Positions 14,107 to 36,140 of a stretch of DNA of 64,000 bases are shown here, in pieces (the stretch's first letter is position 1; every line of letters starts with the position of its first letter). Under the pieces are notes generated by a model. That model had not been told where the DNA came from and did not search any database. It saw only the letters and a list, made by a program, of their open reading frames with translations. The position numbers were made by a program, and so were the translations under genes. This DNA comes from Alphaproteobacteria bacterium (GTDB taxonomy: Bacteria > Pseudomonadota > Alphaproteobacteria > UBA828): positions 32,001 through 96,000 of the forward strand of contig CBDCRW010000002.1 of NCBI GenBank assembly GCA_965221125.1, given 5' to 3'.

Positions 14107-14298
14107 CCCCAACTCTGCCAACCGAGTCCTGGCAAGATCCACATGCTCTCGCCCGCTCCGTTCGAGAAAACCTGCCCAAATTTCCGACTGCCGCGTACCA
14201 TTGGAGTAGAATCGAGAAGGCTCTTCGCGGCAGCTGCGTCACAAGACTCTCATATAGTCGTCGCGAAGCCCACTCGCAGCAGCCTGATAGCAGCGGAC

Positions 14299-14487
14299 TT
14301 AGTCCTTAGCGATTTTGTCAGAAAGCCGGTCCTGGACGGCCTTTCGAATGCGAATGTGCCCCAAATCATCGAGCACTGTTTGCAACTGTTCGCCATCTTT
14401 TGGATCGAGCAGACGCTGCGCAGCGTTATCTGAACTGAGCAACGCCAGTAGATTGACAGCTGCGTGATGGTCACGATCTGCAAGGTG
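14299..14487 (-). pseudogene. Detached C-terminal 62 codons of the nuclease-STAND gene
   Basis: Removing 14493-19113 and one ATAGG copy joins ...LLGAY to HLADRDHH...KIAKD* in frame. Confidence 0.85.
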
Positions 14488-14897
14488 ATAGGTGTTGTTT
14501 CGCACGTTATTTGACGCCGAATCTCCCAGATTATTTGACGTGATCGCTGCCCTGATTTCCCAGATTGCTCGGTCTTTTCCGGATCGAAGCGTAGGAGCTC
14601 ATGGTCTCTGCGGGCGGTCCGGGGTCGCTGTCTGATTGAGGTTTGGACTGGTGCTTGAGGAGAGCTGACGAGGTGTCGCGCGGCCGTCGGCGCGTCAAGC
14701 GGCTGCGCCGCTCCTGCGCTTCGCTTCGGCCCTTCGGGTGACTCGCCACCGTCCACACGACGAAGTGCTGCCATGGCCTGAAGCAAGCTTCCGGCCACGG
14801 ACTGGCCGCTCACCTGACGTAGTATCCCGGTGGAGGCGCAGCGCCTTCCGGACCGTTGGGGAAGGGTGGTTCCCGACGGCGGTTCCGGCTCGAACCC

Positions 14898-15938
14898 CTA
14901 GGCGTTGGCGGAACCGGGCTCCGGGAACCGCGGGGCCTGCGGCCGACTGCTGCCGTTGGCGGCGGCGGCCGCCGCCCGCTTGTCCGCTGCGCCTGCGACG
15001 ACGCTGTAGCCGCCCTCGGCGTTGCGCGCGACGCGACCCTCCTGGACGAGCTTTTGCAAGATTACGCCGACGGTCTTGTGCCGGGTCGCGGCGCGTTCCC
15101 GGATCTGGCGTTGCGAGAGCGGCGCCCCGGCGTCGGCGAGCGCCTTGAGAACGCGGCATTCGGGTGTTTCGGGCTGAGGCGCCCCGCCGCCGGCCGTGGG
15201 CGGCTGGCGCAGCCGGAAGGAGGGCTCCTCTCCGTCTTCCTTGAGCTCGATCTCGATGTCGTCGAGACCGCGTGCGGCGCGATGCTCGACGGTCATGAGG
15301 GTCTGCCGGTCCCGGCGGCGCAGGTAGAGGTTCGAGTCCCCCCAGGCGTGCAGCTCACTGCTGCCCCGCAGGGCCTGCCCCGGCCTCGTGGCCCCGCTCT
15401 TGCGGGCGTGGTGGACGAGGAGGACGGCGGTCTCGAAGCGGCGTTGCAGGTCGCGCAGGAAGCCGAGGATCGGGGCGACGTCCGCAACCGTGTTCTCGTC
15501 CACGCCGTGCAGGCGGACCAGGGGGTCGAGGACCACGAGGCGCGGTGCGATGCGCTCCACGGTCTGCTGCAGGCGGCGGCGGTCGTCGAGATGGTCGAGG
15601 CGCAGTGTGGGCACGTCGATGACGGCGATGTCGAGGGTCTCGAAGCGGGCGCCTGCGGCGCGGGCGATCCCCTGCAGGCGCTTGCGCACGAGGTGGCCGG
15701 CGTCTTCTGCGGCGAACAGCAGGACCGGGCCAGGCCGGGCCGGGGCGAAGTGCCGCAGGCATGGGACGCCGGCGGCGACTGCGACCGCGAGGTCCAGCGC
15801 CAGGATGGACTTGCCGCACTTCGGCTCGCCGCCGACGATGCCGACGGCCTGCTCGCCCCATAGCGTGTCCACCAGCCATTGCTGCTCGCGCGGCCGCTCC
15901 TCCAGCTCGATCGGGGCGCGGGTCGGGAAGCCGGTCAT
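14898..15938 (-). CDS. AAA_25 / RSF1010 RepA-like RecA-fold helicase-ATPase with C-terminal HTH
   Basis: ATGA coupling to the upstream gene; GGEPKCGKS, VLLFAAED, LVVLDPL, LLVHHARK, LRGSSELHAWGD. Confidence 0.85.
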   Translation of the reverse strand: MTGFPTRAPIELEERPREQQWLVDTLWGEQAVGIVGGEPKCGKSILALDLAVAVAAGVPCLRHFAPARPGPVLLFAAEDAGHLVRKRLQGIARAAGARFETLDIAVIDVPTLRLDHLDDRRRLQQTVERIAPRLVVLDPLVRLHGVDENTVADVAPILGFLRDLQRRFETAVLLVHHARKSGATRPGQALRGSSELHAWGDSNLYLRRRDRQTLMTVEHRAARGLDDIEIELKEDGEEPSFRLRQPPTAGGGAPQPETPECRVLKALADAGAPLSQRQIRERAATRHKTVGVILQKLVQEGRVARNAEGGYSVVAGAADKRAAAAAANGSSRPQAPRFPEPGSANA

Positions 15939-16738
15939 GGCCGCAGTTCCTCGAGCGCGTGCTGCAGGTGGTCGGCACTGACGGTCCTCGCCTCGTCGAG
16001 AGCGGCGGCGGAGAGCGCGTAGTGGGCGATGCGGTTGATCTGGCGCGGCAGGCCGCGCGCGCCCTGGAACAGGGCCTCGACGGCGGGCTCTTCGAACAGC
16101 GGCAGTTCGCATCCCGCGAGCCTGAGGCGGTGCTTGATGTAAGCGTCGACCTCGTCGCGGTCGAGACCGCTCAGGTGGTGGCGGACGACGAGGCGCTGGC
16201 TGAGGGATTCGTGCATGGCCATGGCCAGGCGGCGCCTGAGCTCGGTCAGACCGACGAGGACGAGGCACAGGCGCTGCTCTGCATCCATGGCGAAGTTGGT
16301 GAGCAGGCGCAGGTCCTCAAGGACGTCGTTGCGCAGATGATGGGCCTCGTCGATGACGAGGACCGGCAGCTGCTTGGCCTCGGTGACGAGGCGGGAGATC
16401 TCGTTTCGGATGGCCTGATAGGCCGAGGCGCGGGAGCGCTCGATGGGCAGGCCGATCTCCCACGCGATCGCCTTGTACATGTCGAGCACGTTGCCCGTGG
16501 TCAGCGAGACGTAGTGGACCCGGTAGAGGCCTGGATGAAGCTGCGCGGTCAGATGCCGGCACACGGTGGTCTTGCCGGAGCCCACCTCGCCGGTGAGCAG
16601 GCCGATGCCGCGCAGGTCGATGAGGTGGCCGAGCCTGGCCTCGGCCTCGCGGCGCGCGTTGGACTCGAACAGCTCGTCGGTCTCTGCCGGGGTCTCGAAG
16701 GGCAGGCGGGTGAAGGCGAAGTGGCGCAGGTACATCAC
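15935..16738 (-). CDS. ExeA-family AAA+ ATPase (transposition helper, TnsC/IstB-like role)
   Basis: GEVGSGKTT, LVIDEAHHL, LVLVG, GLPRQINRIA; coupled to the transposase. Confidence 0.88.
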   Translation of the reverse strand: MMYLRHFAFTRLPFETPAETDELFESNARREAEARLGHLIDLRGIGLLTGEVGSGKTTVCRHLTAQLHPGLYRVHYVSLTTGNVLDMYKAIAWEIGLPIERSRASAYQAIRNEISRLVTEAKQLPVLVIDEAHHLRNDVLEDLRLLTNFAMDAEQRLCLVLVGLTELRRRLAMAMHESLSQRLVVRHHLSGLDRDEVDAYIKHRLRLAGCELPLFEEPAVEALFQGARGLPRQINRIAHYALSAAALDEARTVSADHLQHALEELRP

Positions 16739-18063
16739 TCGTCCTCCTTCTTGTCCTTGAGGTTGCGCATGGCCAGCGGCGAGGGCGGAGGCTCGGGCGC
16801 CGGATCTTCGGCCTCGATCTCCCTGGCCGGGTAGGTGCGCCTGACGGCGGTATTGGCGTAGGCGTCGAGAGGGCTGGCCTTGCCGGCCGGCTTGCCGTCA
16901 TGGACCACGTCGAGAGGGCGCGAGGGCGGCGCGGCCGGGTCGTAGCGCAGGATGACGTTCTGACCCACCAGGAGGGCGTCGACCTCGTAGACGCGGCCGT
17001 TCAGACTAACGGTGCGGTCCTTGTAGACACGGCGCCTGGCCTCGAAGAGGAACAGATCGTCGAGGTCCATGGTGGCGTCGGGATAGCGCACGCCGGCCGA
17101 GGCCAGCGCCCACTGCTCAAGCGGGGTGCGCCCCTCGTCGAGGCCACGATGCGGGCTGTTGTGATACTCCCCCTCGATCCAGGCCCAGAGGCTGCGGTTG
17201 AGCGCCTCCAGGCTGTCGACGTCATCGCCGAGGTGGCGGAGCCAGCCGGCCCGGAGGGTGCGGAAGAAGCGCTCGATCTTACCCTTTCCCGCTGGCTGGA
17301 ACGCCCTTGCGTGAATCAACGCAACGCCGAGCCTGGCGCAGACCAGGGAGAGATGACGGGAGCGGTAGGCGCTTCCGTTGTCGACGTACAAGCGGGCCGG
17401 GAGGCCGCGCCGGATCAGCGCGTCCTTGAACACCGGCAGGAACGCCGCAGTGTTCTCCGCCATGGCGAAGGCGGCGAACGGGATGACGCGGGTGGCGTCG
17501 TCGATGAAGGCGATCAGGTAGGTCTTGCGCCGGGTTCGGCCGTGCCGGACCTTGGGTCCGTGCATGACGTCGCTCATCCACATCTCGCCGGCATGCCGGA
17601 AGGCGAAGCGGCGGCGATCCGCCCCGTCGGGCGGCTTCTTGTCGAACAGGCCCTCGCGGCTGAAGAGGCGGTGCACGGTGGACGAGGCGAGCGGGTGGTC
17701 GATACCCTCCTCCTTGACCTTCTGGATGATGGCGCGAACCGACAATGCGTCGTTCTCGGTCTTCAGCGCGATGAGGCGCTCGGCGACCTCGGGCGGCAGC
17801 CGCCGGGGCTTCCCCCGGTCGGTGCGGGGCTTGGGGTAGAGCGCGTCGAAGCCGCCGTAGCGGTAGTCCTTGATCCAGCGCCGCATGGTCTCGGCGGCGA
17901 CCCGGGTCCTGGTGGTTCCGGGGATCGTGTAGGTCTTCTCGGCTTTGGCGCGCATCATCGCGCCGGCACCCGGTGCACCCACGGGCAGATGCACCAGATC
18001 GGCGATGACGTCGTATCGGAAGAGCGCGATCTGTTGGCGAAGGTCGTCGTCTGAGCTGTTCAT
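16735..18063 (-). CDS. DDE-type transposase (rve core, Mu-like C-terminus)
   Basis: WMSDVMHG, IAFIDDATR, LYVDNGSAY, GKGKIERFFRT; N-terminal HTH. Confidence 0.92.
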   Translation of the reverse strand: MNSSDDDLRQQIALFRYDVIADLVHLPVGAPGAGAMMRAKAEKTYTIPGTTRTRVAAETMRRWIKDYRYGGFDALYPKPRTDRGKPRRLPPEVAERLIALKTENDALSVRAIIQKVKEEGIDHPLASSTVHRLFSREGLFDKKPPDGADRRRFAFRHAGEMWMSDVMHGPKVRHGRTRRKTYLIAFIDDATRVIPFAAFAMAENTAAFLPVFKDALIRRGLPARLYVDNGSAYRSRHLSLVCARLGVALIHARAFQPAGKGKIERFFRTLRAGWLRHLGDDVDSLEALNRSLWAWIEGEYHNSPHRGLDEGRTPLEQWALASAGVRYPDATMDLDDLFLFEARRRVYKDRTVSLNGRVYEVDALLVGQNVILRYDPAAPPSRPLDVVHDGKPAGKASPLDAYANTAVRRTYPAREIEAEDPAPEPPPSPLAMRNLKDKKEDE

Positions 18064-18967: not shown

Positions 18968-19113
18968 CAACAGCAATGAGGATTCTGCTGAGGATCAAAA
19001 AAATGCCGCAGGCAGCGTCCTTCCCGCACTCGGCCACCATCCCGGGAAATCCACCAACCAATCAAAGTGAGAAAAAAACCCGTGCTTCTATCCGGCTAGA
19101 CCGGAAAACAACA

Positions 19114-22100
19114 ATAGGCCCCTAGCAGCAGCAGAGCGCAACTCTTCGTCGACTGCGCAATTCGTTCCATCGCCGCGACCACTGCGGCGACCTGTCCATG
19201 AATCGCAAGTAGAACGCAAGCAGAGGCGGCCAAAGGTGGCCCAAGTTGCAAAAGAAGCTTGGCAGTGATCGCATCTAGAATGTCGCTTTCGACCACATCC
19301 GCCCGGCTCAAGGCGTCGATGGCGTCGACGCGGACCCAACGGAGCTGATCAACGAACGATAGGGCCCATATTGCTTTGCGGATCGCTGGGCCGCAGCATT
19401 GCGCAGCAGTGTTGAGTGCGACAATGCCGAGCGAGCGATCGTCCGTGCGCTCGGCTCGCAACAACAGCGTTTCTCCGATTTCATCTGATAGGCTGCCGTA
19501 GGCAGCCAGCCCGACTATCGCCTCGCGCGCGATCGGATAAGATGGCGGCTCATTGTAGAAGGCTTCGGCGTCGGACCAATTGTCGTCGATCAATCGGAGT
19601 AGCACGTTCATATGATGCCCATGAGGCCGGTCCGTAAGAATGTCGACTAGGCTGCGGCGAACTCGGCTACTGGGATCGGTCGCCATATATAGAAGTCGCT
19701 GCGGCAGCGGGCTTGGCAGGCAGTTGGCGAGATAGACGAGCGCCGCCTCGCGAGCATCCGCACGCGCATGGTCAAGTGCGAGCCACACAAGCTCTTCGTT
19801 CCGAATGCAAATTGCTGCCTCGACGGCAGCTTTCGCGAGTTTACGGTCCTCGGTCTCCGCGAGCCATCGCCGAATGACTGCCGCTGGAGTGGAACCACTG
19901 ACGATCATCATCGGTACGATCTTGTCGAGGATAATGGGCGGTACCATCTCCGCAGCCTCATTCAACAGATGAAGAGTCGTCTGGCCGACAGGGCGTGGAG
20001 GTTCGTCCTTGATGGATAGAGCCTGGAAAATCTCTTTGCCAGCACTCGAGATCGACTTCAGGACGTGCCTCGCTCGCCGCGCGCGCTTCTTGCGGGAGAT
20101 CCGGAGATGCGCCGCATGCGTATCCACTAGTAGGTGGACGAAATCTGCCGGTGCGGTAGACAATCTCTCCAAGCAGAGGCCAAGCGTCGCTGGCGATTTC
20201 TTCAAGGCGCAATAGATAAGTGAATGGCGCAAGCGATCGTCGTCCGGATTGGAAAGGAGCCGCTCTTCAAGGTCGGAGGCCAGCGTAGATTGCCAATGCT
20301 GGCGCGCAGCTTCCCAAGCATGCTGTTCGTCATCGCCCGGCTGCGTGACAGCGATGACGCTCCGAAGCTCCTCCGGCGACACCGACCGGCTCGTGTGTGA
20401 GATGTCCTGGGCCCAAGCACGGCCCAGTTCCAATATTCGGGAGTGTTTTGCCAAGGATTTCCAGTGGCCTAGCGACCTAACCTGTCTTACGTAGGCTTCA
20501 ACGAAAGTACTCGCCGCATAACCGTCATCTTGGTGCTGCCATTGATAGCCTTCCTTAAAAGCTACATCGCATTCTCCGTCTTCGATCGCCCGCCATTGAT
20601 TCAGGCCCTCTCGCTCGTGGGATCGACTAACGCGCGCAAGTTCTTCAAGCGCCGCATCAAGCACACCTTCATAGAGATCAAGGTCCCGCACTGCCCCAGC
20701 CGCCACCGCACGGACATTACTAACGAAGCCAGAGTCTACCAGCTTGCGTGCTGCCGCGACGAAGGCCGGCGTGAGGTCGCTCGCGATTCGATCGAGTTGG
20801 TTTGCAAAGTCATCGCCAAAGCCGTCCCGATCCTGCGGCAACAGCTCGCGAACAAACCGATCAGCGATCGCAAAAGACCGTGAATCGGCGGAGACCCGCG
20901 CATACCACGCATCATTGACAGGCGGTGGCTTCCAATCGTCGAGGGAGAATTGACCACCATGCCGGTTGCCATTGATGAACCAGCGCGCAAGTTCTGCCGG
21001 GATCGATATCTGCGTACCCACATCCGACGCCAGTTGCAGCACGGGTCCGAAATCGGCTCGTGGATCAACCAAGCTCTCTTCCAGCCACGCATCGATTGCC
21101 TCATGGCTGGCACTGTCAGCCTCAAATTCCGCATAAGGGCTCTCAATGTCGGAAGTGAGATCGGCGATTGCCTTGAGCGACCGGGCGGCGGTCTCCAGCG
21201 CCCAATCCTGATGCGATCCACCGAGTTGAGTCAAAGCAGAGATCATTGACGTCAAGGCGGCTTCGCTGCGTCCCCAATTCTCTTTTATGAATGTCTCGAA
21301 GCCAGCCCGGACGCTCGGATGAGAGAAGCTGACGGTCTGGCCGGGCTGGCGCAGATGACGCGTGGCGACGAGCCGGTTCACCAGCTTCTCCAGCCCGTCG
21401 AAGAAGGTCGGATCGCCGCTCCGCAGCTGCCGGTTGAGTCTGACCAGCTGATTGCGGTCGAACTGCGATCTCGCTGCCAGCAGTGCCCAGATGATCGCTG
21501 ACGCGCCGGTTTGATCGCTGTCGCTCAGATAGGAGATAACCACATCTTCCACGGCCTCACGATGCGCCAGTGCAAGAGTACGTTTGAAGAAAGCACGGTC
21601 GATCTCACCCGGTTGCGGACGGTCGCCGATGTAGCTGATAAACAACTCGACTTCGAGTGGCGTTTGGAGCGCGTCGAGAGCGCCCGCGCGGAAATCCAGC
21701 GCCTTGGCTTGCAAATCCTTTGCCAACAGCTCGATGCGATTGTCGTAGATTCTTGCGAGTTCACCATCGCGATATTGATCGGCGTCCAGCACGACGGTCC
21801 AACGCTTCAGGCCCTCGCCGGCCCTAGACTGATCCAGCATGTCTGTGCGCGAAGTGACGACGTACTGGTGTCCGGCATGCGCCTCCCGCAACAACCGAGG
21901 AAGCTGCTCGGTCCAGATGTCGGCGCCGACCCGGAGGCTCGACTGCCCCCAAGGATCCTCAACGTAGTAGAGCCTCGGTCCGGTGTCGGAGAGCGCTCGC
22001 GTACTCGACGGACCGTTGTTGACATTGACCTCAATGATTTCAGGCGCTGAAGGTCCCTGTCGTGCCTGATCGACGAGCGCCCGCGCCGTCCAGGTCTTGC

Positions 22101-22908
22101 CTGTACCTGACGGGCCGGCGATAACGAGGGCGTTTTGGCGTTCGAGCAGATCGCTCATGGTTTCGTAGTTCGCTGGCGGCACGAACGACTTGAGCTGCGG
22201 AGCGCTAGCTAGATAACCACCACAGTCGCGAATGACACTCAGCAAGTCCTCGCGCGTCCACTCGCCTACTTCCGTTCCGCGCATGCGCTGAAGTGCCTCG
22301 TCTCTCAACCGCGCACGACATTCTGCTCTCCGGTTCTGGGGTACCCGCAGAAGAGACCCGAGGATTTCGTTTGTTTCCAGATCCAGAAGGCGCTCAGTAA
22401 GAACGCCCCAGATAGCGACCCGACCCTCTGGTCTATAGGGTAAGGTTTCTGATAGGAGAGCTGGAAAAGTCTGCTCTTCCGGCCATTCTTCCAAGCCCTG
22501 TACGCCCAGGTTGCGAGCCTCCCCAGTTGTGTCAGCGTTGGTGATCAACAAATAACGCGTGCCGGGATGGTCAAGATGGCATCTGGCCGGTTCCCGAGTC
22601 GTACCGCGTTTGAGCAGGGCATCGAAGTCGGCGATCGACCACGGGCCACTGTTGCGGAGCTTCACCTGCACGACAAGCTTGTAGCCCGCCGCCATATTCG
22701 CGCTAGGCCGCACCCGGCCCGGCGTAGCTGGTTCAAGGTCCGCCGCCAGATCTTCCTCGTTAGCGGGTTCGAGTGTGATCTGGGTCGCCGACTTCGTGAT
22801 CAGCATCAATTGCAGGGCTATCAACACCGAGACACCGAGCTGGTACTCAAAGCCGTCGAGCGCTGCTTTAGCCCCGCCTGCTGCAGATGTTGGAGCTCGC
22901 GATTTCAA
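19114..22908 (-). pseudogene. PD-(D/E)xK-type nuclease - STAND NTPase - HEAT/ARM-repeat protein (Avs/NLR-like defence candidate), C-terminus cut off by transposon
   Basis: N-terminal GFEYQ...EED...VVQVK; Walker A IAGPSGTGKT; YYVEDPWG; YVVTSR; HEAT-like C-terminal repeats. The final CCFPV residues come from the transposon end. Confidence 0.75.
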
Positions 22909-23794: not shown

Positions 23795-26700
23795 ATGACG
23801 ATATCTTTCGCGGAAGCAACACAGACGCTGCTCGCGGGTGAGCCGCTAGCATGGAGCGGATTTGAAGGCCACGCAGCGGGATCCCTTACCTTAACCTCAT
23901 CTGGCCAGAGACGCCTCTTCGCATTCCTCATGAGCCAAGACCGTGCGAAAGTCGCTCGCGGCGATGAAAGTCTCTTTGCTGGACTAACTTCGGCCTGGAA
24001 CAACGAGGGCTCAGATCCAGCCTCGACCGCAACCACTAAGACTCAAGCGTCACCTACGGATGTATGGAGATTAGATAAAATCGAAGCATCCGGTTTCGGT
24101 GGCCTGACGCTCTGTGGTGGGCCCACATTTGAACTGCGAACGAATGGTCGGAACTGGTGTCTGAATGGACAGAACGGCTCGGGAAAGACTTCCATAGTTA
24201 GCGCTATCCTGTGGGCACTAACAGGTCAGCGCATCCGCGAGCAAGATGGCCCAATCAAAGAGAACGGTGAACGCTCTGCAGTCATCAACAAGGCCGGAAC
24301 GATAATTGGCACTTGGCCTTCTTTCGCGTCATATCCAGCAGAAGAACATCAATTGGCCAATTCGGTCGAGGTCTGGGTGCGGCTAACCTTTGTGAACCAA
24401 AATGGCGAAGCTGCTAGTGCCTTTCGGCGAATGGTGTGTCCGACAGCCGGAGACTCCATTACAGATACTACGATCGATCCCAGGTTACTAAGCGCCCCTC
24501 AGTTGTTAGAATCAGGCTTGCTAATGCCAGCACGGTTGGCCGGAATCGGGTTTGGCGAAAAGAGTAGTTCGTTGTATGAAGCAGTTAAAATGCTCACTGG
24601 TCTTGACCAACTATCCGATGTTGCCGAAGGGAGCAGCCAATTTACGCACCGAGGTAGACGTTTCCTCAAGTACGGCAAGGATAGCGGTCTCGATCGTTGG
24701 AGTGACACGTTTGTTGACGAGATGACTAAGGCAGTTGAGACAGCGGAAGCGCTGCGCTTCAAGCTGCCCGTCAATCGACAGTTGGGCAACAATACTCTTG
24801 TCTCTGATCTTCAACACGCTGCCAAGAATGCCTCGGATCAAGCAGCCACTCATTTTCGCGCTCTAAAGTCTGATATTGCACCCGATATTGATACATCTAC
24901 CGCCGAGGATCGTGAGACAGTGCGCAATGCGGTAGCAACAGCCCGAATGCTTGTGAACCAGGGCACAAAGGGCGTCTCACTGTTCGATGCATGGACAGCC
25001 CTGGAAGAAGCTAGCGAGGATACGAACTGGGCGAAACTTCCCAATGCCATTGCAAATGCCCGTATCATGTTGAAGTCTGCTATCAACTGGCACACGATGC
25101 AAATGGCCGACGAGAAATTCAGACTCAAGGCCTTAGCAGCACAATATTTCGTTCCTCCGCACCGTCATTCCGATTCTGCTCGGTGTCCTTTGTGTGAGGG
25201 GCTCTTGTCCACCAAGGAGCAGGAGGCATTAGCAGCACAACTGACTGAACTTCAGAAGGACGCCGAAGAAGCGGAACGCAAGCTGGACGATGTTTGTCGG
25301 CGCTTGGAAGCCGATTTGCTGGATTGTTTTCCGCGAGGGATGAAACAGCACCGTGACCGTCTAGCTACCATGAATCCAAGGAAGAGTTACGGTATTGCTG
25401 CTCGCGAACGCTTCTGTGAGCAACCTCCCTTCGTTGATGTTCTTGTAGCACTCTCGGCGCATAATCGGACCAAGATTGAAGAACAGGAGGCTTTGCTACC
25501 TGAGTTTGAGTTTTCTAAATTTGAAGAGGATGAGAAAGGGGAGTCTGAAAGCGTTGCCCGCTTGCGCCGTAGTTTCCATAGCATAGATCGGCTCTTGGCG
25601 CTCGTTGCTTGGTGGAGTCAACATCGTGAGAACTTTCGGGCGGCATGGGCGGAACTTATCGGGATCGTACCAGATGACTATGAAGGTCCGGCCTTAGGTA
25701 TTGTTGCCCGGATTGATTTGCTTGAGGAAGCGCTGTCCAAGGCTGCCCCGGCGGACCAGCTAGCCAAGTCTCTTCTTGGTGCCGCGGTAGCGGCAGAGAA
25801 GTGGGCGGAGATCAGAAAGGTGCAGGACTTACGTGAGGAAATCGCCAAAGCGTTACAGCCCCTCAAGGACCTGCGCCATTTAGTAGGGGCCGAGACGGCC
25901 CGCTCTATTGCGAACCTGTCGGGTCGGATAAGAGATATCGTGGAGCGAATCCATCTCAGGGAACGTTTGATATACGAGCAAACTTCACTTGGGAGGAAAG
26001 TTGTACATGTAGGAGGTAGTTTTGCACCAGGCCTGCAAATAGATGCGGCTCTAGTCGCTAACTCATCGTGGATACGAGCCATTTTGTGGGCTTTTATCTT
26101 TGCTCTGCGGGAAGAAGCAATCGAGACCCTTAATGCCAACCCGTTTCCGTTGATGGTACTCGATGATCCTCAAGCAAGCTTTGATCCTCGCAACAAGCGC
26201 AAATGGGCAGAGGAGCTAGCTCGCCTGGCCAACATGGGCCGAACGTGCACGCAGGGGGTGCAACTCTTCCTAGTTACGCACGAACGCCAATTCTACCAAT
26301 GCATGGTGGATGTGGAGCGACTGGAAGGAGAGCAGGGTTTAATCGGCGGTGTCAACAGCACTGCCGGCGTCGTTACCATCGTAAATGCCGGATGGCTTCA
26401 GCGAGCGTGGCAGGAGGCAAGTGAAAATAACGACGATTCGCGCGCGCGTGATTACATATCTGACGTCCGAATCTATTGTGAAGATCTTCTCAAATTTATG
26501 TTGAGAGGTGAGGGTCCAGACATTCCACATTTCAGTTTAGGCGGGCTGATAAGGAAACTCAAGGATTTGCATGACGATCATGTGCCACCTTTTGATCGAA
26601 AAGTATTTTCACAACTCATCAATACGTTTTGTGGTGGTGGCGGCAAGCCGATGAACTTGATAAATGAGACTCACCACAAAGACGATGAGAGCATTGGATT

Positions 26701-27682
26701 AGCGCAAGCAAGTGAAGTAAAGAACTTTTGGGAAGGCAAGTTAATGGGGCAGATTCACGACGCTTTTGCAGTCTATGATCGCTATGAGTCCTTTTATGGT
26801 GAACCGAGGACGTTTCCCTGGGCCAAGACAGTGGTCGATTTCCCGATTGGCTTCCGAGACGAGTTGAGAGAGGTGGCGTTGCAGCAGTCAGGGATTGCCG
26901 CCGCGGCAAGAACTGACGGCAGGGCTGGCGACGGTGTTATGACCATCACGGAATGGGATGCCGCCAGTACGGTTGCTTTACCAAATCATGAAGTGTTTCA
27001 GCTGGCGGCTGGAACTCTAGAGCCGGTCGCGAGTCTGGGCGATTTGCTGATAGTGTGTAATCATGCGAAAGTGAATCCTCGCAATTTGGTTGTTGCAGCA
27101 CACGGAGATGCGTTGTTAGCTCGTCGCTACAACGAGATGGGCGAGCATCCCGAGATTGCGGTACTGACTGGAGAGGTAGTTGACCCGTATTCTCTACCAG
27201 AGCCATTGATTATCGCACCGAACACAACGAAGTTGCGCAAAGTTGTTGGAACCCTTTTTGCCGCACATCAGCTGCCGGTTCCCGCCATTGAGGAGAATGC
27301 AGAGATTGTGCCACTCAGAGACCCGACAGTTCCAAGACGAATCCTCCAGGGTGCGCGTTTATTTCAAGTTGAAGGACGGAGCGCGGAACCCATTGCATTA
27401 GATGGCCAGTTCTTGATCACCAGCGATGTGGAGTTGGGCATCGAACACGTTCGGACATTGGACGGTCGACTTGTAGTTGCGATCGATGAAGATGGCACAA
27501 GGTACTTTAAGAGATTGCGCTGCATAAGGGAAGTTGTGGTATTGGAAAGCCTGAATCAGGATGGCAGTACAAGTAGCGAGTTGTTGGGCTTAGACGGAAG
27601 CAGCGGGCTGCCAATGCTATCTCACGTACGCGAAGTTGTTGGGGTATTGTTTGAGGTGAACAGTGGGAATATTAGTGCTTGA
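23795..27682 (+). CDS. Rad50/SMC-like ABC ATPase with Zn-hook, HEPN-like region and tandem S24 (LexA-type) peptidase-like domains
   Basis: LDKIEASGFGG, GQNGSGKTS, CPLC hook in a coiled coil, LMVLDDPQASFD, LVTHE; C-terminal GTLEP...LARRY and GRSAEP...YFKRL...LESLN. Confidence 0.8.
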   Translation: MTISFAEATQTLLAGEPLAWSGFEGHAAGSLTLTSSGQRRLFAFLMSQDRAKVARGDESLFAGLTSAWNNEGSDPASTATTKTQASPTDVWRLDKIEASGFGGLTLCGGPTFELRTNGRNWCLNGQNGSGKTSIVSAILWALTGQRIREQDGPIKENGERSAVINKAGTIIGTWPSFASYPAEEHQLANSVEVWVRLTFVNQNGEAASAFRRMVCPTAGDSITDTTIDPRLLSAPQLLESGLLMPARLAGIGFGEKSSSLYEAVKMLTGLDQLSDVAEGSSQFTHRGRRFLKYGKDSGLDRWSDTFVDEMTKAVETAEALRFKLPVNRQLGNNTLVSDLQHAAKNASDQAATHFRALKSDIAPDIDTSTAEDRETVRNAVATARMLVNQGTKGVSLFDAWTALEEASEDTNWAKLPNAIANARIMLKSAINWHTMQMADEKFRLKALAAQYFVPPHRHSDSARCPLCEGLLSTKEQEALAAQLTELQKDAEEAERKLDDVCRRLEADLLDCFPRGMKQHRDRLATMNPRKSYGIAARERFCEQPPFVDVLVALSAHNRTKIEEQEALLPEFEFSKFEEDEKGESESVARLRRSFHSIDRLLALVAWWSQHRENFRAAWAELIGIVPDDYEGPALGIVARIDLLEEALSKAAPADQLAKSLLGAAVAAEKWAEIRKVQDLREEIAKALQPLKDLRHLVGAETARSIANLSGRIRDIVERIHLRERLIYEQTSLGRKVVHVGGSFAPGLQIDAALVANSSWIRAILWAFIFALREEAIETLNANPFPLMVLDDPQASFDPRNKRKWAEELARLANMGRTCTQGVQLFLVTHERQFYQCMVDVERLEGEQGLIGGVNSTAGVVTIVNAGWLQRAWQEASENNDDSRARDYISDVRIYCEDLLKFMLRGEGPDIPHFSLGGLIRKLKDLHDDHVPPFDRKVFSQLINTFCGGGGKPMNLINETHHKDDESIGLAQASEVKNFWEGKLMGQIHDAFAVYDRYESFYGEPRTFPWAKTVVDFPIGFRDELREVALQQSGIAAAARTDGRAGDGVMTITEWDAASTVALPNHEVFQLAAGTLEPVASLGDLLIVCNHAKVNPRNLVVAAHGDALLARRYNEMGEHPEIAVLTGEVVDPYSLPEPLIIAPNTTKLRKVVGTLFAAHQLPVPAIEENAEIVPLRDPTVPRRILQGARLFQVEGRSAEPIALDGQFLITSDVELGIEHVRTLDGRLVVAIDEDGTRYFKRLRCIREVVVLESLNQDGSTSSELLGLDGSSGLPMLSHVREVVGVLFEVNSGNISA

Positions 27683-27742
27683 GTATGTGTGAGACGGCGG
27701 AACATGACGTTGCAAGAGAACCCAGGAATAGTTTACTTCATG

Positions 27743-28015
27743 GTATCCATCCGAGCAGTACCGCAGCTGGTAAGGCACCACCGTCCAGCCGATGGGCCCT
27801 GCGGGAGCTTTCAGCGAGTGACGGAGATCAGGCCGCGAGGTCTTGATACTGTCGGGTCTTCCAGTGCCAAGGTAGGAGTTCCGGCAGGCGGGTCTGCGGC
27901 TGCTCGGCGATGCGATCGAGCACGTCGGCGAGCCAGGCCTGGGGGTCGACGTCGTTGAGCGTGGCGGTGCCGATGAGGGTGTACATCACCGCCGCCCGCT
28001 CGCCGCCGCGGTCCG
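27743..28015 (-). mobile_element. IS66-family remnant (tnpC C-terminus and right end)
   Basis: Minus strand SDRGGERAAVMYTLIGTATLNDVDPQAWLADVLDRIA...LPELLPWHW; IS66-like end GTATCCATCCG at 27743. Confidence 0.75.
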
Positions 28016-28830
28016 ACGAGGTGCGGTTGATCCCGCCGATCTACGTGAAGCCATTCGTGAAGCGGCAGAAGAACGACGCTACGGACGCGGAGGCGATCTG
28101 CGAGGCGGCGCAGCGTCCGACCATGCGCTTCGTGACGGTGAAGGGGGAAGAGCAGCAGGCCCGGGGCATGCTGTTCCGCACGCGCGACCTGCTGGTGCGC
28201 CAACGCACACAGACGATCAATGCGCTGCGTGCTCACCTGGCGGAGTTCGGCGTTGTCGCTCCGCAGGGGCCGGCCCATGTCCGCCGGTTGGCATCGGCAC
28301 TTGAGGATCCGAGTTCGGGCTTGCCGGGGCCGGTTCGCGAGCTGGGCGCCCTTCTGCTCGATCGGATTGCCGACCTCGATACGAAGATCGCCGGCCTGGA
28401 GAGGGAGATCCGCGCGTGCGCACGCCGGGACGAAGAGGCAGCGCGGCTGATGACGATCCCGGGGACCGGGTCGATCAGCGCGATGGCGCTGCAGGCCTTT
28501 GCGCCGCCGATGGAGAGCTTCCGGCGCGGGCGCGACTTCTCGGCCTGGCTCGGCCTCGTGCCGCGGCAACATACGACGGGCGGCAAGCCACGGCTGGGGA
28601 GGATATCGAAGATGGGTCAGCGCGATCTGAGAAGGTTGCTGATCACGGGCGCCATGGCCGTTGTCAGCTGGGCGGCTCGGCGCGGCGAGACGAGGGACCC
28701 CTGGTTGGCCCGGATGCTCGCACGTAAGCCCAGGCTGCTGGTCGCGGTGGCGCTGGCCAACCGGATGGCGCGCATCGTCTGGGCGCTGATGACGAAGAAG
28801 GAGAGCTACCAGGCACCCGCCTTCGCCTGA
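28015..28830 (+). pseudogene. IS110-family (IS1111-type) transposase, N-terminally truncated
   Basis: VKPFVKRQKNDATDAEAICEA; AWLGLVPRQHTTGGKPRLGRISKMGQRDLRRLL; the N-terminal GxD catalytic motif is absent. Confidence 0.85.
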
Positions 28831-29229: not shown

Positions 29230-29433
29230 CACCGACTGGGGCGGCGACGGCAACAAAATGTGGAAGGGCTACGCGCCCATCGCCCTCAGCGCCAGCTCGG
29301 CCAGCTGCTCGTTGGTGCCACGCGACTGGCTATCCAACGGGATGGCGACGGCGTCGCCGGGCTCGACCGCGGACAGGCCGAACACCGTATCGAACGCCCG
29401 GATCCACTTCGCCTCGACCCGCTCCTACAACAT
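29230..29433 (-). pseudogene. Fragment of a peptidase M29 / NicX-like gene
   Basis: ML*ERVEAKWIRAFDTVFGLSAVEPGDAVAI...QSRGTNEQLAELAL with in-frame stops; family recalled, not searched. Confidence 0.4.
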
Positions 29434-29608
29434 GATGCCCTCCCCGCCGCAACGCTCCGACCCCAGCAACACGCCAAGCCGCGGACGGAGCCAACGGGGC
29501 AGGCGGCATGCCGGGCGTGTCAACCGCGCTGAGCCGGTTGGGGCTTCCGTTTCGCGCGGCCGATCTGTATCAGTCCACCGGACCGGACCAAACCGACAGG
29601 CCCCTGCC

Positions 29609-32600
29609 ATGTCCACGCCCGACTTCGATGCCTATCTCCGCGCGCTTCGCGAAATTCCGCTGGACGAACATACGGAATTTACTGGCCGGACGGCGCTGGA
29701 AACTCTGTTACGGGGCGTCGCCTCCCGGCAAACGGGCGGACGGATCGGAGTCCAGCAGGAACCCAAGAGAGAAGCCGGCAAGGGCGCACCGGATTTCAAG
29801 GTTTCGCGCCAGGGCATGATCCTCGGCTATGTCGAGACCAAGCCTGTCGGCGAAAATCTCGACCGGGTTCTGAAATCCGATCAATTGAAGAAATACGGGA
29901 GCCTTTCCGACAACATCCTGGTTACGGACTATCTGCATTTTGTATGGATAAACAAAGACGGCGTACAACGCGAAACGCTGTGCCACGCGACGGATCTCGA
30001 ATCTCCACAATTCAGGGCGCGGGAGGACCGAGCGGCAGAGGTCGCGCGATTGCTGAACGGGTTCTTTTCGACGGCCCCGCAGGGAATCGGCCGGTCGCAG
30101 ATTCTGGCTCAGGCGCTTGCCGTGCGCAGCCGATTGCTGCGGGACAGTCTCGGCGGGGAACTGGTCCGGCAAAGGAAAGATGACCAACGAGGCCGGTTAT
30201 ACGGGCTGTTTGAAGTCTTCCGCGATCAGGTCTTCCACGAACTGGAACTCCCGGAGTTTGCCGACGCCTTTGCACAGATGCTGGCCTACGGACTGTTTCT
30301 GGCAAGAATCAATTCTGGAACCGATGCCGTCACCTTGCAGAACGCCCGGCAATTCGTGCCGGGCTCGTTCCGCCTGATCCGGGAACTGGTCGAATTTCTG
30401 CCCGAACTGGAAGGCCCGGAATACCGAGATGTCCGCTGGGTGGTCGAGGAAATCCTGTCCATCGTCAACGGCCTCGACATGGCGGCGATCCATGACGACC
30501 TGTCGTTCCGGCAGCGCCGGGCGATCAGCAGGAATGTGCGCGCCGGGGATGAGGAAGAGCACCGGTTGTTCGAGCGCGACCCCTTCATCTACTTCTACGA
30601 GGACTATCTCAAGGCGTACGACGCAAGGACGCGCAAGAGCCGCGGCGTCTACTACACGCCGCCGCCGGTCGTGAACTTCATCGTCCGGGCCATCGACGAC
30701 ATCCTCAAGGACAGCTTCGGCATCGAGGACGGCCTCGCCGACCATAAACGGGTAACGGTACTCGACTTCGCCTGCGGCACCGGAACCTTCCTGCTGGAAG
30801 TCTTCGAGCGAATCTTCGACCAGATCGGCGGACCCGCAGCTGGCCGTGCCAACTTGATTGTCCGCGAGCATTTGCTCAAGAACATATTCGGGTTCGAATT
30901 TTTGATTGCGCCATACACCATCGCCCATCTGAAATTATCTCAATATCTAGGCGACAAGGGGCATTCTCTTGAAGACGGAGATCGGCTCAAGATCTTTCTT
31001 ACAAACACTCTGGAGCCGATCGCACCGCAGCCAAACCTGCTGCTTCCTGCGGTTACCGCGGAAGTAGAGGCTGCGCAAGAAATCAAAGAAAAACCTATCC
31101 TCGTCATTACCGGGAATCCACCCTACGCCGGACACTCAAAGAACAATGGCGAGTGGATCACTTCAAGAATCGAAGATTACAAGTTTGTCGACGGCAAACA
31201 CTTTGGAGAACGTAAACACTGGCTCCAGGATGACTACGTCAAGTTTATTCGTTTTGCGCAAGAAAAAATGAAAGATGTCCCTAGAGGTATCGTAGCATTG
31301 ATTTCAAATCATTCCTGGCTTTCCAGTCCGACTTTCCGCGGTATGCGACAATCATTACTGAACTCATTTCATCAGATACACGTTATAGATTTGCACGGCA
31401 GCACAAAGCCGAAAGAAACCCCTCCAGGTGGCGAACGAAACGAGAATGTGTTTGACATTATGAAGGGTGTGGCGATATCACTGTTCATTAAAGACGAAAA
31501 TTTGGAACGCGGCGTGTGGCACGGTGACATTTGGGGTCGTCGTCTCGAAAAATATCAATTTTGTGCCGCCGCAGACTACCGAACAGCAACCTCGGCTCGA
31601 ATAGAGCCAGAAACTCCGTATTATTTTCTTCGACCTCATAGCTCGGATGAAGTGTGGAAGGGATTTTTGTCACTGGAGGAAATTTTCATGCGACAAAGCG
31701 TTGGAATGTTGACCGCGAGAGACAAGTTCAATGTCGAGTTCAGTAAGTCCGAATTAATTCAGAAGTTGAACGAATTTGCAACACTTTCGCAGGAAAGAGC
31801 ACGTACGCGTTTTTCTCTAGGCCAAGACTCGAGAGATTGGAAAGTATCGTTGGCGCAAGATGATTTACGTTCTTCGGGTATCGAAGAAGGAAATTTAATT
31901 TCCGTTTTCTATCGACCATTTGATAACCGATTTGTATATTACACGGGAAAGTCCAAGGGGTTAATTGGTCAACCGGCAAAGGTTTTGTTTGACGCAATTG
32001 AGTTACCTTCTATTGCCTTAAGTACAGTAAAACGTGTGGAGGAAGGAGAATTTCGACATGCGCTAGTTTGTTCAAAGTTGCCAGACGGGCATTCGGTCTC
32101 GTCGAAAGAGACGACGCATGTGTTTCCACTATACTGGTGTCAGGAGGGCACAGGGAGTTCAACCGGTAAGATTGCAAATTTGTACCCGGATTTTAGAGAG
32201 TCATTAGATGCGCGGTTTGAAGACCACTACACACCAGAAGATATACTAGGTTACATATATGCGATTATGTACGCGCCGAGCTACCTAAGAGATTATGCAG
32301 AATTCTTGTGTATTGATTATCCTCGTATTCCGCTCCCGACGTCCGGCAAGGACTTTGAATTACTTTCACAGCTTGGGTGGACGCTCACACAATCACACTT
32401 GCTGATTGATGTATTGCGCCTCGGGCTCGCTCGTTACCACGGCCAAGGTGACGATATGATAGCGGCTGTTCGCTATTCGGCACGTGAAGAGTCGATCCAC
32501 ATTAACAAGACGCAATGTTTTCGGCCGGTGCCTCAGGCGGTGTGGGACTTTTGTATCGGCGGCTACCAGGTGCTCGACAAGTATCTGAAGTCACGAAGGG

Positions 32601-32725
32601 GTCGAACTCTGTCGCTCGACGAGATCGACCACGTTGCGAAGGTCGCGGACAGCGTCGCCTTCACGATCGACCAGATGGCGGCCATCGACGGAGCCTACAA
32701 GGCAGCGTTCAAAACCTCGAGGTAA
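29609..32725 (+). CDS. Single-chain restriction-modification enzyme (type IIG/IIL, ISP-like specificity domain), N6-adenine methyltransferase
   Basis: PDFKV...GYVETK nuclease; GVYYTPPPVV; VLDFACGTGTFL; ITGNPPY; YRPFD; IGGYQVLDKYLKSR. Confidence 0.9.
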   Translation: MSTPDFDAYLRALREIPLDEHTEFTGRTALETLLRGVASRQTGGRIGVQQEPKREAGKGAPDFKVSRQGMILGYVETKPVGENLDRVLKSDQLKKYGSLSDNILVTDYLHFVWINKDGVQRETLCHATDLESPQFRAREDRAAEVARLLNGFFSTAPQGIGRSQILAQALAVRSRLLRDSLGGELVRQRKDDQRGRLYGLFEVFRDQVFHELELPEFADAFAQMLAYGLFLARINSGTDAVTLQNARQFVPGSFRLIRELVEFLPELEGPEYRDVRWVVEEILSIVNGLDMAAIHDDLSFRQRRAISRNVRAGDEEEHRLFERDPFIYFYEDYLKAYDARTRKSRGVYYTPPPVVNFIVRAIDDILKDSFGIEDGLADHKRVTVLDFACGTGTFLLEVFERIFDQIGGPAAGRANLIVREHLLKNIFGFEFLIAPYTIAHLKLSQYLGDKGHSLEDGDRLKIFLTNTLEPIAPQPNLLLPAVTAEVEAAQEIKEKPILVITGNPPYAGHSKNNGEWITSRIEDYKFVDGKHFGERKHWLQDDYVKFIRFAQEKMKDVPRGIVALISNHSWLSSPTFRGMRQSLLNSFHQIHVIDLHGSTKPKETPPGGERNENVFDIMKGVAISLFIKDENLERGVWHGDIWGRRLEKYQFCAAADYRTATSARIEPETPYYFLRPHSSDEVWKGFLSLEEIFMRQSVGMLTARDKFNVEFSKSELIQKLNEFATLSQERARTRFSLGQDSRDWKVSLAQDDLRSSGIEEGNLISVFYRPFDNRFVYYTGKSKGLIGQPAKVLFDAIELPSIALSTVKRVEEGEFRHALVCSKLPDGHSVSSKETTHVFPLYWCQEGTGSSTGKIANLYPDFRESLDARFEDHYTPEDILGYIYAIMYAPSYLRDYAEFLCIDYPRIPLPTSGKDFELLSQLGWTLTQSHLLIDVLRLGLARYHGQGDDMIAAVRYSAREESIHINKTQCFRPVPQAVWDFCIGGYQVLDKYLKSRRGRTLSLDEIDHVAKVADSVAFTIDQMAAIDGAYKAAFKTSR

Positions 32726-34068: not shown

Positions 34069-35112
34069 CTATGCCGTCTGGAGCGCCATCGCCTCCTCGC
34101 GCGTGAAGCGGAACTCGGTGCCGTCCCGCCACATCCGGTGAAGTACCACGCCGATGCGCCGGGCCAGGGCGACGGTCGCACGCTTCTTGCCACGGAGCTT
34201 CGCCAGACGAAGCGCCCAGGCCTTCAGCCAGTTCGGCCCGGCGGTGCCGTTCAGCATCACCGTGGCGGCCTGATAGAGCGCGGTACGCAGACCTGCGTCG
34301 CCGCACTTCGTGATGCCGCCGACAATATCTCGCTCGCCGGATTGGTCCCGGCCCGGCGTCAGTCCCACCCAGGGGCCGACATCCTTCGATCTCCGGAACC
34401 GCCCGGGATCGTCAATCGCCGATTTGAAGGTCAGGGCCACGACCGCGCCTACGCCGGGCATGGTCATCAGCAGCCGGCATACCGGATCCTCCCTGGCCAG
34501 ATCGCGGACCAGCTTCTCCAGGCCGGCCAGCTCGCGGCGCAGAGCCACCCGCGCGCGCAGGATCGGTTCGGCGGCGGCCTCCAGCATCGCGTTGCCTGCG
34601 ATCAACTCCCGGACGCGGGCCTCCCAGCGGCCCTTCGAGACCTGGCCCAGCTTCAGGCCAAAGTTGCGCAACACGCCGCGCAGCGAGAGTTCCATATCGG
34701 TGAGCGCGCCCTTCACGGACCTGCGCGAGGTCAGCAGTGCGCGCATCTCCTGCGACGATACCGACTTGCAGTGCACCGGCCTGAACCAGCCCATCTGCAA
34801 GAGCCGTGCGATGCCCTCGGCATCCCGGCGATCCGTCTTGATCGGCATCGCCTTCAGCGCCGCCTTCACCCGCCGGGTCTCCATAAGGACGGCCTCGAAG
34901 CCGGCGTCGGTCAGCCCCTTGTGCAACCAGTGGGACAGGGGACCGGCCTCAAGACCGATCACGGCGATCTCGTGCTCCAGCTTGCCCATGAACGCAACCA
35001 ACGCGTCAGGCGTGCTGGCGACCTGAGCCTCGGTCACGATCTTGCCCTTGTCGCCGATCACGCAGATTGTCGTGCTTGCCAGCGATACATCCAGCCCGAT
35101 ATAGACAGCCAT
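34069..35112 (-). CDS. IS110 family transposase (DEDD recombinase)
   Basis: YIGLDVS, IGLEAG, KTDRRDAEGIA, GLTPGRDQSG; apparently intact (347 aa). Confidence 0.93.
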   Translation of the reverse strand: MAVYIGLDVSLASTTICVIGDKGKIVTEAQVASTPDALVAFMGKLEHEIAVIGLEAGPLSHWLHKGLTDAGFEAVLMETRRVKAALKAMPIKTDRRDAEGIARLLQMGWFRPVHCKSVSSQEMRALLTSRRSVKGALTDMELSLRGVLRNFGLKLGQVSKGRWEARVRELIAGNAMLEAAAEPILRARVALRRELAGLEKLVRDLAREDPVCRLLMTMPGVGAVVALTFKSAIDDPGRFRRSKDVGPWVGLTPGRDQSGERDIVGGITKCGDAGLRTALYQAATVMLNGTAGPNWLKAWALRLAKLRGKKRATVALARRIGVVLHRMWRDGTEFRFTREEAMALQTA

Positions 35113-35260
35113 GTCGTTGCCCTTTCCTCTCGAAGGATTGGGGCGCGCCTTCCGGCAAGACCCCGTGAGCACGCTGAGCGTGCAAGGGCAACGACACCCG
35201 ATTCGTCGTCATCGGGACAGGCTCCGATGGTACCGATTGGCGCCGAGCCCCATTACGGCA

Positions 35261-36140
35261 TCTTGGTCTCATGGAGCGTGAGCCCGTATCGACCGAGACG
35301 TTTGCCCAGCGCGTCAAGCAGCCGCTTGCCGCTGTGGCGGTCTTCGAGGGCGACGACAAAGTCATCGGCGAATCGCACCAGCTGGCAGTTTCCGCGTAGG
35401 CGCGGTTTCGCCACTTTCTCGAACCACTCGTCCAGCACATGGTGCAGGAAAACGTTCGATAATAGCGGCGAGATCACCCCGCCTTGGGGAGTGCCAGCGA
35501 CCGGCCTGTGCACGGTGCCCTCTTCGAGCACCCCTGCCTTCAGCCATTTGTCGATCTTGCGCCTTGCGACGCCGTCCTTGATCCGCAGGTCGAGGAACGA
35601 CCGGAGGTGGGTGTGCGAGATCGAGTCGAAGTAGGATTTCAAATCCGCGTCGATCACCCATCTTTGGCGCTGCTCGATGATGCCCGCACGCAGCGCGTCC
35701 AGGGCATCGTGAGCCGACCGTCCGCGCCGGAAGCCGTAGGAGCACGGCAGAAAGTCCGCCTCGTAGATCGGCTCCAGCAGCATCAGGATCGCCCGCTGTG
35801 CCACCTTGTCTTCGAACGTCGGGATGCCGAGAGGGCGCTTCGTCCCGTCCGCCTTGGGGATGTAGTGCCGTCGCACCGGCGGCGCGAAGTAGCGGCCCGA
35901 CTTCATCCGGCACAGGAGGTCATCAAGATTGGCCTCCAGGTCCTTCTCGTAGTCGACCGCCGTCACGCCGTCGATGCCCGTCGCCCCATCCTTGCGCGTC
36001 AGGCGATACGCTTCGCGCATCCACTCGCCGTCGATCAGGTGGTGCAGGGACGTGAACACCCGGTCCGGATGCTCCCTCGCCTGTTCGGCTATCCACTGCT
36101 GTTTCGTGTACGTGTTGGTGGAACTCAGGGTTTCCTCCAG
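35261..36140 (-). pseudogene. ltrA: Group II intron reverse transcriptase/maturase, proximal fragment
   Basis: GATGIDG, RPLGIPTFEDKVAQ, SYGFRRGRSAHDA, DADLKSYFD, GTPQGGVISPLLSN, RFADD. Confidence 0.9.

Follow-up and report, generated by a model that had tools for sequence, protein, structure and literature searches.

A candidate single-protein anti-phage device combining a Rad50-like ATPase, a probable HEPN fold and tandem S24 folds

A stand-alone gene with a conserved multidomain architecture

We analyzed a stretch of 64,000 nucleotides from an alphaproteobacterial genome (assembly GCA_965221125.1, contig CBDCRW010000002.1, positions 32,001 to 96,000; hereafter the window, to which all positions refer), and in particular one stand-alone open reading frame (ORF) of 1295 amino acids on its forward strand (23795..27682). 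An earlier reading of the letters by a model, made without database searches (the sequence-only reading), had proposed that this gene fuses an SMC/Rad50-type ATPase to a HEPN-like region and tandem LexA-type S24 peptidase domains, and had put it forward as a candidate single-gene defence system. It had also described the gene as richer in AT than its flanks, and we found a G+C fraction (GC) of 0.51-0.55 within the gene against 0.58-0.69 in the flanks. We take the ATG of 23795..27682 to be the true start because 27 homologues begin at the same methionine, with conserved residues from position 12 onwards. One database copy (P0002, 1250 amino acids) starts 45 residues downstream of the query methionine; in view of the 27 homologues that share the query's start, that of P0002 is probably mis-called.

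The features of the gene described here all lie on the forward strand. Residues 1-75 (23795..24019) form an N-terminal domain that is conserved in 27 sequences, with L12, G15, W20, R39-R40, L45, F61, W68 and D74-P75 invariant, and that is followed by a variable linker to residue 90. No match to this domain was found in Pfam, PADLOC or a profile search of PDB chains, and the Atlas gave no usable match; in a divergent sister clade it was not recognisable, and an unrelated N-extension stood in its place. An ABC ATPase head comes next, in which the N-lobe (residues 91-300; 24065..24694) and the C-lobe (residues 741-861; 26015..26377) are separated by a coiled-coil insert (residues 301-740; 24695..26014). 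Pfam matched AAA_23 and SMC_N to the N-lobe and AAA_21 to the C-lobe, in line with the proposed SMC/Rad50-type ATPase. Each of the ATPase elements listed by the sequence-only reading was present, namely Walker A (G125QNGSGKT132; 24167-24190), a CPLC zinc hook (C464-P-L-C467; 25184-25195) and, within the C-lobe, a degenerate signature-like ANSSW (residues 755-759), Walker B (PLMVLDDPQ, with D790-D791; 26147-26173) and an H-loop (T828-H829); all but the H-loop histidine are conserved in the wide family defined below. The Pfam family Rad50_zn_hook matched 9 of 38 aligned members at E<=0.01, and a profile search of PDB chains with the whole protein returned weak Rad50 matches only, the Rad50 hook among them.

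We then asked how widely this architecture occurs. A word-indexed protein search returned 436 proteins at E<=0.001; nearly all of the best 120 of these 436 were ~1290 residues long and shared 49-71% identity across 99-100% of the query, and mean column identity in the 38-sequence alignment was 62%. Database annotation of these relatives extends only to 'hypothetical protein' or 'AAA family ATPase'. With one genome taken per species, 54 loci were found among 185,579 species, mostly in Alphaproteobacteria and also in Gammaproteobacteria, Nitrospirota, Acidobacteriota and one myxobacterial metagenome-assembled genome. Twelve plasmid records carried a relative, and eight of these plasmids were conjugative. 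A profile of the helical domain (residues 862-1008, described below), searched against 1.84 billion cluster representatives, matched 161 proteins at E<=0.001, and no other architecture with this domain was seen among them. From these 161 we drew the wide family, a MAFFT alignment of 60 full-length representatives (1220-1360 amino acids; 19-70% identity to the query).

All 60 representatives aligned with the query end to end, down to 19% identity. Local hidden Markov models (HMMs) detected the two ATPase head lobes and the helical domain in the same order in 60/60, and the two S24 HMMs in most, not all, of them. Lys131, Cys464, Cys467, Asp790, Arg892, His961, Ala1038, Arg1111, Ser1196, Pro1199 and Lys1239 were invariant (60/60), and Glu896 was kept in 59/60. 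Judged by alignment, the architecture is fixed across the 60 examined representatives, and the residues for three activities are conserved together. A search for natural S24-less or split forms among shorter proteins gave only pieces of the family. Of six shorter representatives, two fell in clusters with full-length members, two had frameshift-like ends, and two (P0186, P0219) could be placed in neither group. The reading frame was interrupted at 8 of 35 homologous loci (L013, L025, L031, L034, L037, L039, L041, L043), two of which lie in complete isolate genomes, those of a Mesorhizobium (L031) and of Methylocapsa polymorpha (L043); some of the interruptions may be long-read errors. The copy on a Phyllobacterium plasmid (L033) gave two matching pieces that together span 5.0 kb, as though an insertion had divided it.

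We next compared the neighbourhoods of 36 loci, comprising the window and 35 loci with full-length matches. No ORF of at least 100 amino acids within 6 kb, and no open frame of at least 35 amino acids within 1.2 kb, was common to more than four of the 36 loci, and the up to four loci that did have a neighbour in common were close relatives. The gene stands alone, with no conserved neighbour; the sequence-only reading had claimed single-gene status and had itself named this comparison as a check. We also ran PADLOC on the 19 largest neighbours from 16 other loci, a choice biased by size and made with no matched background rate. Four of the 19 strongly matched defence proteins (a type III restriction-modification (R-M) system, with methyltransferase and restriction enzyme; Hhe/PDC-S37; a GajB-like helicase; AbiLi), two were LmuB-like ATPases, several gave weak matches and eight had no match at E<=1e-5.

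An ATPase of Rad50/SbcC type, together with the 'double-strand break repair' gene ontology term that PGAP assigned to one homologue, could point away from immunity altogether. The protein would then be an SOS-linked, SbcC/Rad50-like repair or recombination factor of mobile elements with UmuD-like activation, and its helical domain a HEPN-like binder of nucleic acids with no catalytic role; a survey of the superfamily reports that some HEPN domains lack catalysis (PMC3710099). We give this explanation very little credence. No SbcD/Mre11-type nuclease partner is conserved nearby in the 36 loci, the distribution is rare and patchy, and the gene's low GC, its presence on plasmids, its often interrupted frame and the defence genes near it speak against a repair factor, as does the invariant R/E/H triad of the helical domain, which argues for catalysis.

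Among catalogued defence systems, Lamassu supplied the best PADLOC match of the ATPase (LmuB model PDLC03859, residues 425-850, E 4.5e-15). The query shares an hhhhDD Walker B and a single CxxC with the 'long' form of LmuB as published (PMC12663957), and in both cases an SMC-like protein that senses DNA would hold a toxic effector under control. However, genes for LmuA and LmuC were absent near the query and its homologues (36 loci), and the query's effector is fused to its ATPase. The LmuB match is also generic to CxxC ATPases, because the same model matches RloC-like proteins at E 1e-14 to 1e-21. We rejected membership in Lamassu on these two grounds, the missing LmuA or LmuC neighbour and the generic model.

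A helical domain aligned with the RloC triad

By sequence, the helical domain (residues 862-1008; 26378..26818) had no match in Pfam or PADLOC and nothing significant among PDB chains. In an AlphaFold2 model built on 38 sequences, the domain forms a four-helix bundle (predicted local distance difference test, pLDDT, 83). VIA-align against 48,161 chains placed 4nqf, a 'HEPN domain protein', first (Z 10.6, 126 residues aligned), followed by 2hsb (Z 8.8), the sacsin HEPN domain (8.5) and the HEPN toxins 7ae2 (8.5) and 8xdj (8.0), with the archaeal HEPN homologue 1wol at Z 6.7 and Roquin, AbiA and Csm6 lower down. In Foldseek the HEPN toxins 7bxo/7ae6 and 2hsb led, but at E 0.7-0.9. Since Z values below ~13 may reflect an arrangement common to helical bundles, we rate a HEPN fold as probable, not proven.

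RloC provided the closest comparison. RloC and PrrC use a triad, Arg-X3-Glu-X36-52-His, of which each residue was essential by mutagenesis (PMC2610378), and DNA-break inducers activate RloC via its ATPase (PMC3874168). As RloC-like comparators we fetched nine AAA_13 proteins from the same class, eight of which were aligned; the four scanned by PADLOC all matched PDC-S06, and one of them also matched PrrC across its nuclease part. A profile-profile alignment with the eight proteins was collinear over 674 columns (Prob 95%, E 3.6e-8), joining query residues 95-984 to positions 8-748 of 767 in the RloC-like profile. In this alignment R892 and E896 (R892-x3-E896; 26468-26482) fell on the RloC-like 'R-x3-E', and H960, the first of a histidine pair (H960-H961; 26672-26677), fell on their 'SH'. 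The spacing from Arg-Glu to His is 64 residues in the query, against 36-52 in the RloC triad.

The sequence-only reading had likened this region to the HEPN domain of RloC, and a helical bundle with HEPN structures as its first matches and an aligned triad supports that likeness; because the Arg-x3-Glu...His triad aligns, the resemblance is stronger than that reading could know. Both proteins have the same order of ABC head, coiled coil with a single CxxC, head C-lobe and helical nuclease domain, and both are single genes that are rarely tied to a fixed partner. Unlike RloC, the query is ~500 residues longer and carries a 75-residue N-domain, a hairpin and two S24 folds that are found in no RloC. 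PF13166 did not match the query at E<=1 and matched only 2 of 38 members at E<=0.01. The query family would work in the manner of RloC and probably descends from the same stock, and at the sequence level its nuclease domain is only motif-similar to that of RloC.

The tandem S24 module and a proposed cleavage switch

In a model of the C-terminal module (residues 1001-1295; pLDDT 79.5), a beta-hairpin resembling the cleavage-site region of LexA (residues 1028-1060; 26876..26974), with strands at 1029-1040 and 1043-1060 and a low-pLDDT tip, precedes a pseudo-S24 domain (residues 1061-1160; 26975..27274) and an active-looking S24 domain (residues 1163-1290; 27281..27664). Pfam Peptidase_S24 (PF00717) scored 29.3 bits on the fragment (cut-off 23.3) and matched 33 of 38 members. 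With VIA-align, the first S24 domain alone (model residues 52-160) matched the C-domains of LexA, UmuD' and lambda cI at Z 9.9-10.4, and the hairpin together with the last domain superposed on LexA 75-198, including its cleavage-site region, at Z 10.3-10.4 with 118-121 residues aligned; unrelated rows reached at most Z 5.7. Aligned with each other by hhalign, the two domains proved to be repeats (E 8.7e-4), in which Thr1074 of the first stands opposite Ser1196 of the second. The first repeat lacks the lysine and carries an invariant R1110-R1111, and the second holds its serine in G-R-S1196-A-E-P (Ser at 27380-27382) and its lysine in Y-F-K1239-R (Lys at 27509-27511). A dead S24 copy followed by a live one with a Ser/Lys dyad, as the sequence-only reading had described them, is thus the right description.

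That reading had further pointed to an Ala-Gly-containing linker ahead of the live domain. The linker GIAAAARTDGRAGDG is present, but roughly half of the wide family lacks its Ala1044-Gly1045 or has other residues there, and this pair is not conserved as a cut site, in contrast to the invariant Ala1038. By the printed VIA-align ranges, LexA Ala84/Gly85 fall at query residues 1037/1038 (A1037-A1038; 26903-26908). Across the 60 representatives, position 1036 was Ala, Leu, Val or Ile in 57, position 1037 was Ala in 50 and Ser in 10, and position 1038 was always Ala. Because this h-(A/S)-A pattern equals the V/I-A-A that precedes the Gly at the LexA cut (the host LexA reads GRIAAG), we predict self-cleavage after Ala1038, give or take one residue.

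Compared with LexA, lambda cI and UmuD (MEROPS S24), the query has the same S24 fold, a Ser/Lys dyad with the cI-like spacing of 43 residues, and a hairpin with h-A-A where LexA has its scissile bond. It differs in having no DNA-binding repressor domain, its tail being attached to an ATPase-nuclease and not to a repressor or polymerase subunit, and in the duplication of the S24 fold within one chain, with the dead copy between the hairpin and the live domain. It differs also at the residue after the predicted cut (P1'), which is Gly in LexA, cI and UmuD and here is Arg in the query and variable in the family.

An S24 module without Gly at P1' might not cut its own chain at all. It could instead dock on RecA filaments or single-stranded DNA, oligomerise, or act as a protease in trans on a phage or host protein, and the RNase would then be under the sole control of the ATPase, as it is in RloC. 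Binding roles do exist in the module, because one of its two S24 folds, though no longer catalytic, is still conserved, with Arg1111 kept throughout; C-domains of the LexA family likewise provide dimerisation and RecA-binding surfaces, as in complexes 8gms and 8trg. We nevertheless see only a small chance that self-cutting is absent, since the invariance of Ser1196 and Lys1239, together with that of Ala1038 on a hairpin that superposes on LexA, would make little sense if that loop were not a substrate for catalysis.

Tentatively, and with somewhat less than even confidence, we read the protein as an RloC-type enzyme of abortive infection or defence, contained in one polypeptide and equipped with a LexA-type proteolytic switch, in which the S24 module is a lid whose loss licenses the RNase. 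A defence role is suggested by genomic context and by analogy. The Rad50/SbcC-like ATPase with its zinc-hook coiled coil would serve as the sensor of DNA ends, breaks or replication intermediates, as in RloC and LmuB, and the HEPN-fold domain (Arg892, Glu896, His960/961) would be the effector, probably an endonuclease that cuts tRNA or some other RNA. The C-terminal module would form a covalent pseudo-dimer of S24 folds, the live member of which (Ser1196/Lys1239) holds, in the model, the LexA-like hairpin with Ala-Ala 1037-1038 where LexA is cut. Intramolecular cleavage after Ala1038, promoted by RecA-ssDNA (single-stranded DNA) filaments, by an ATPase-driven conformational change or by both, would release the S24 module (257 residues), and the remaining 1038 residues would have the layout of RloC. 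Loss of the lid could then license the RNase, for example via HEPN dimerisation, and its firing would stop translation in the infected or DNA-damaged cell. Both RecA and LexA are encoded by the host genome. A fuller version, in which a RecA/DNA-damage signal, the sensing of DNA ends, or both lead to irreversible activation of a tRNA-cutting HEPN toxin by a one-chain pseudo-dimer autoprotease, strikes us as doubtful.

Several points weigh against the favoured reading. The HEPN assignment stands at the level of fold only, its best Z of 10.6 lying under the caution mark and its Foldseek E values at 0.7 or above, and the canonical HEPN Rx4-6H motif is absent, no Arg being found 4-6 residues before H960/H961. 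A profile of the HEPN domain alone was not significantly similar to RloC C-termini (P 0.042), the sole local alignment being the R-x3-E helix, so the alignment of the triad rides on the similarity of the ATPases. A profile of the S24 module found nothing significant among PDB chains, so that LexA was not reached by sequence, and the P1' residue departs from Gly. Contact between the S24 module and the HEPN domain is an assumption of the lid model. The 8 of 35 interrupted frames would fit a costly gene and equally the decay of a useless one, and the sample of defence neighbours is skewed towards the largest ORFs and has no background rate. Finally, the case as a whole is built from computation on sequence and predicted structure.

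The description of the protein as a toxin gated by proteolysis, offered by the sequence-only reading, assumes that cleavage activates. The opposite logic is that self-cleavage disarms or times out the toxin during the host's own DNA damage. In that event the cut would expose a C-terminal ...Ala-Ala on the ATPase-HEPN fragment, the fragment could be degraded, and the suicide RNase would be spared from firing, an equivalent of restriction alleviation at the level of protein. ClpXP is reported to degrade the N-terminal fragment of LexA, which ends in VAA (Neher et al. 2003), and the new C-terminus of the query would read [A/L/V/I]-[A/S]-A in 60/60 representatives. Cleavage inactivates LexA and cI, and RloC works without any S24 module, which makes the S24 tail an add-on and not the primary lock. 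A computed complex of the HEPN domain with the hairpin/S24 module scored 0.25, under the mark of 0.32, which speaks neither for nor against binding. We consider disarming less likely than activation, though a serious rival to it. Ala-Ala is equally explained by S24 substrate preference, UmuD is a case in which S24 cleavage activates, and the conserved dead S24 copy and its strict linkage to HEPN suggest a structural role beyond that of a degron.

The ATPase-HEPN-tandem S24 fusion looks like an undescribed single-protein anti-phage device. None of the papers covered by our searches joins an S24/LexA-like module to an SMC/ABC/HEPN defence protein, a coverage that excludes the ABC ATPase classification of Krishnan et al. 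2020, which may describe the architecture. A preprint on bacterial Schlafen proteins makes no mention of S24 or LexA, and the HEPN superfamily survey lists ABC-HEPN fusions without S24 (PMC3710099). We predict the family to be a natural RloC-type, break-responsive nuclease with an explicit, irreversible and mutationally tractable switch, rare yet spread across several phyla and conjugative plasmids. Should RecA stimulate self-cleavage, the SOS signal would be wired to an immune effector directly through protein, as opposed to transcriptional control via LexA, and a single protein could couple DNA damage straight to growth arrest or the death of the cell. If activation is S24-gated, a general, undescribed principle may follow, in which the SOS co-protease signal is read at the protein level by immune effectors; if cleavage disarms the toxin, the family would protect its host in a new way that resembles restriction alleviation. 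In both cases, the tandem dead and live S24 folds make a compact single-chain sensor, switch and effector, and reuse as a protease-gated RNase is conceivable.

The surrounding island and neighbouring genes

The gene lies in a mobile, defence-rich island, and the same contig carries the host lexA. It sits between a STAND gene and an R-M gene, as the sequence-only reading had stated. The upstream, divergent neighbour (19096..22908, reverse strand, 1270 amino acids) encodes an NTPase of the nSTAND3 family (PF20720, E 1.3e-14), and our neighbourhood comparison showed that it is not conserved beside the homologues. About 240 of its N-terminal residues and a long C-terminal region were unmatched, and its PADLOC matches were weak only (PDC-S73 at 3e-5, MkoA), so that this neighbour may itself be a STAND defence gene that is yet to be characterised. 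Downstream, a type IIG/type ISP restriction-methyltransferase (29258..32725, forward strand) matched Type_ISP_C at 9e-67, N6_Mtase, and the PADLOC model REase_MTase_IIG at 8e-244. Its GC is 0.60 in the 5' part and falls to 0.45 in the 3' third (about 31000-32500), which suggests a swapped specificity region, and the first ~120 called residues of this ORF resemble non-coding read-through.

Directly downstream of the gene, before the R-M gene, lies a truncated IS110 transposase (27910-28830, forward strand) that matched DEDD profile positions 73-152 only. An 89-residue ORF with a GTG start (27689-27958, forward strand) begins 7 nucleotides past the stop codon; it is probably not a gene, because Pfam gave no match to it and other loci do not conserve it. 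Upstream of the gene, no sigma-70-like promoter was found, and the SOS-box consensus GTTC-N7-GTTC occurred 46 times in the window against 43 expected and not once in the 160 nucleotides before the gene. Further along, an intact IS110 stands beside a reverse-transcriptase fragment (RVT_1; 34069-36059, reverse strand), which may be a disrupted group II intron. The window also encodes, at 10006-18063, a TrwC relaxase-helicase of 1366 amino acids, an AAA_25/MarR protein and a TniA/TniB-like transposase pair. Given the relaxase-helicase and the TniA/TniB-like pair, the defence genes belong to, or border on, an integrated element of conjugative or mobilisable type.

Two recurrent gene pairs were observed beside homologues elsewhere. 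At three loci (L003:12730-17586, L007:5002-9755 and L029:5026-9852), the gene stands beside a pair encoding an SMC-like ATPase of ~1170 amino acids and a protein of ~430 amino acids, the ATPase matching LmuB in L003 and, weakly, mad3 in L007. Upstream of the gene at three others (L021, L024, L026), we found an LmuB-like protein of ~1025 amino acids with a gene for ~385 amino acids upstream of it. Both pairs, each seen at three loci, may represent SMC-type systems that have yet to be named.

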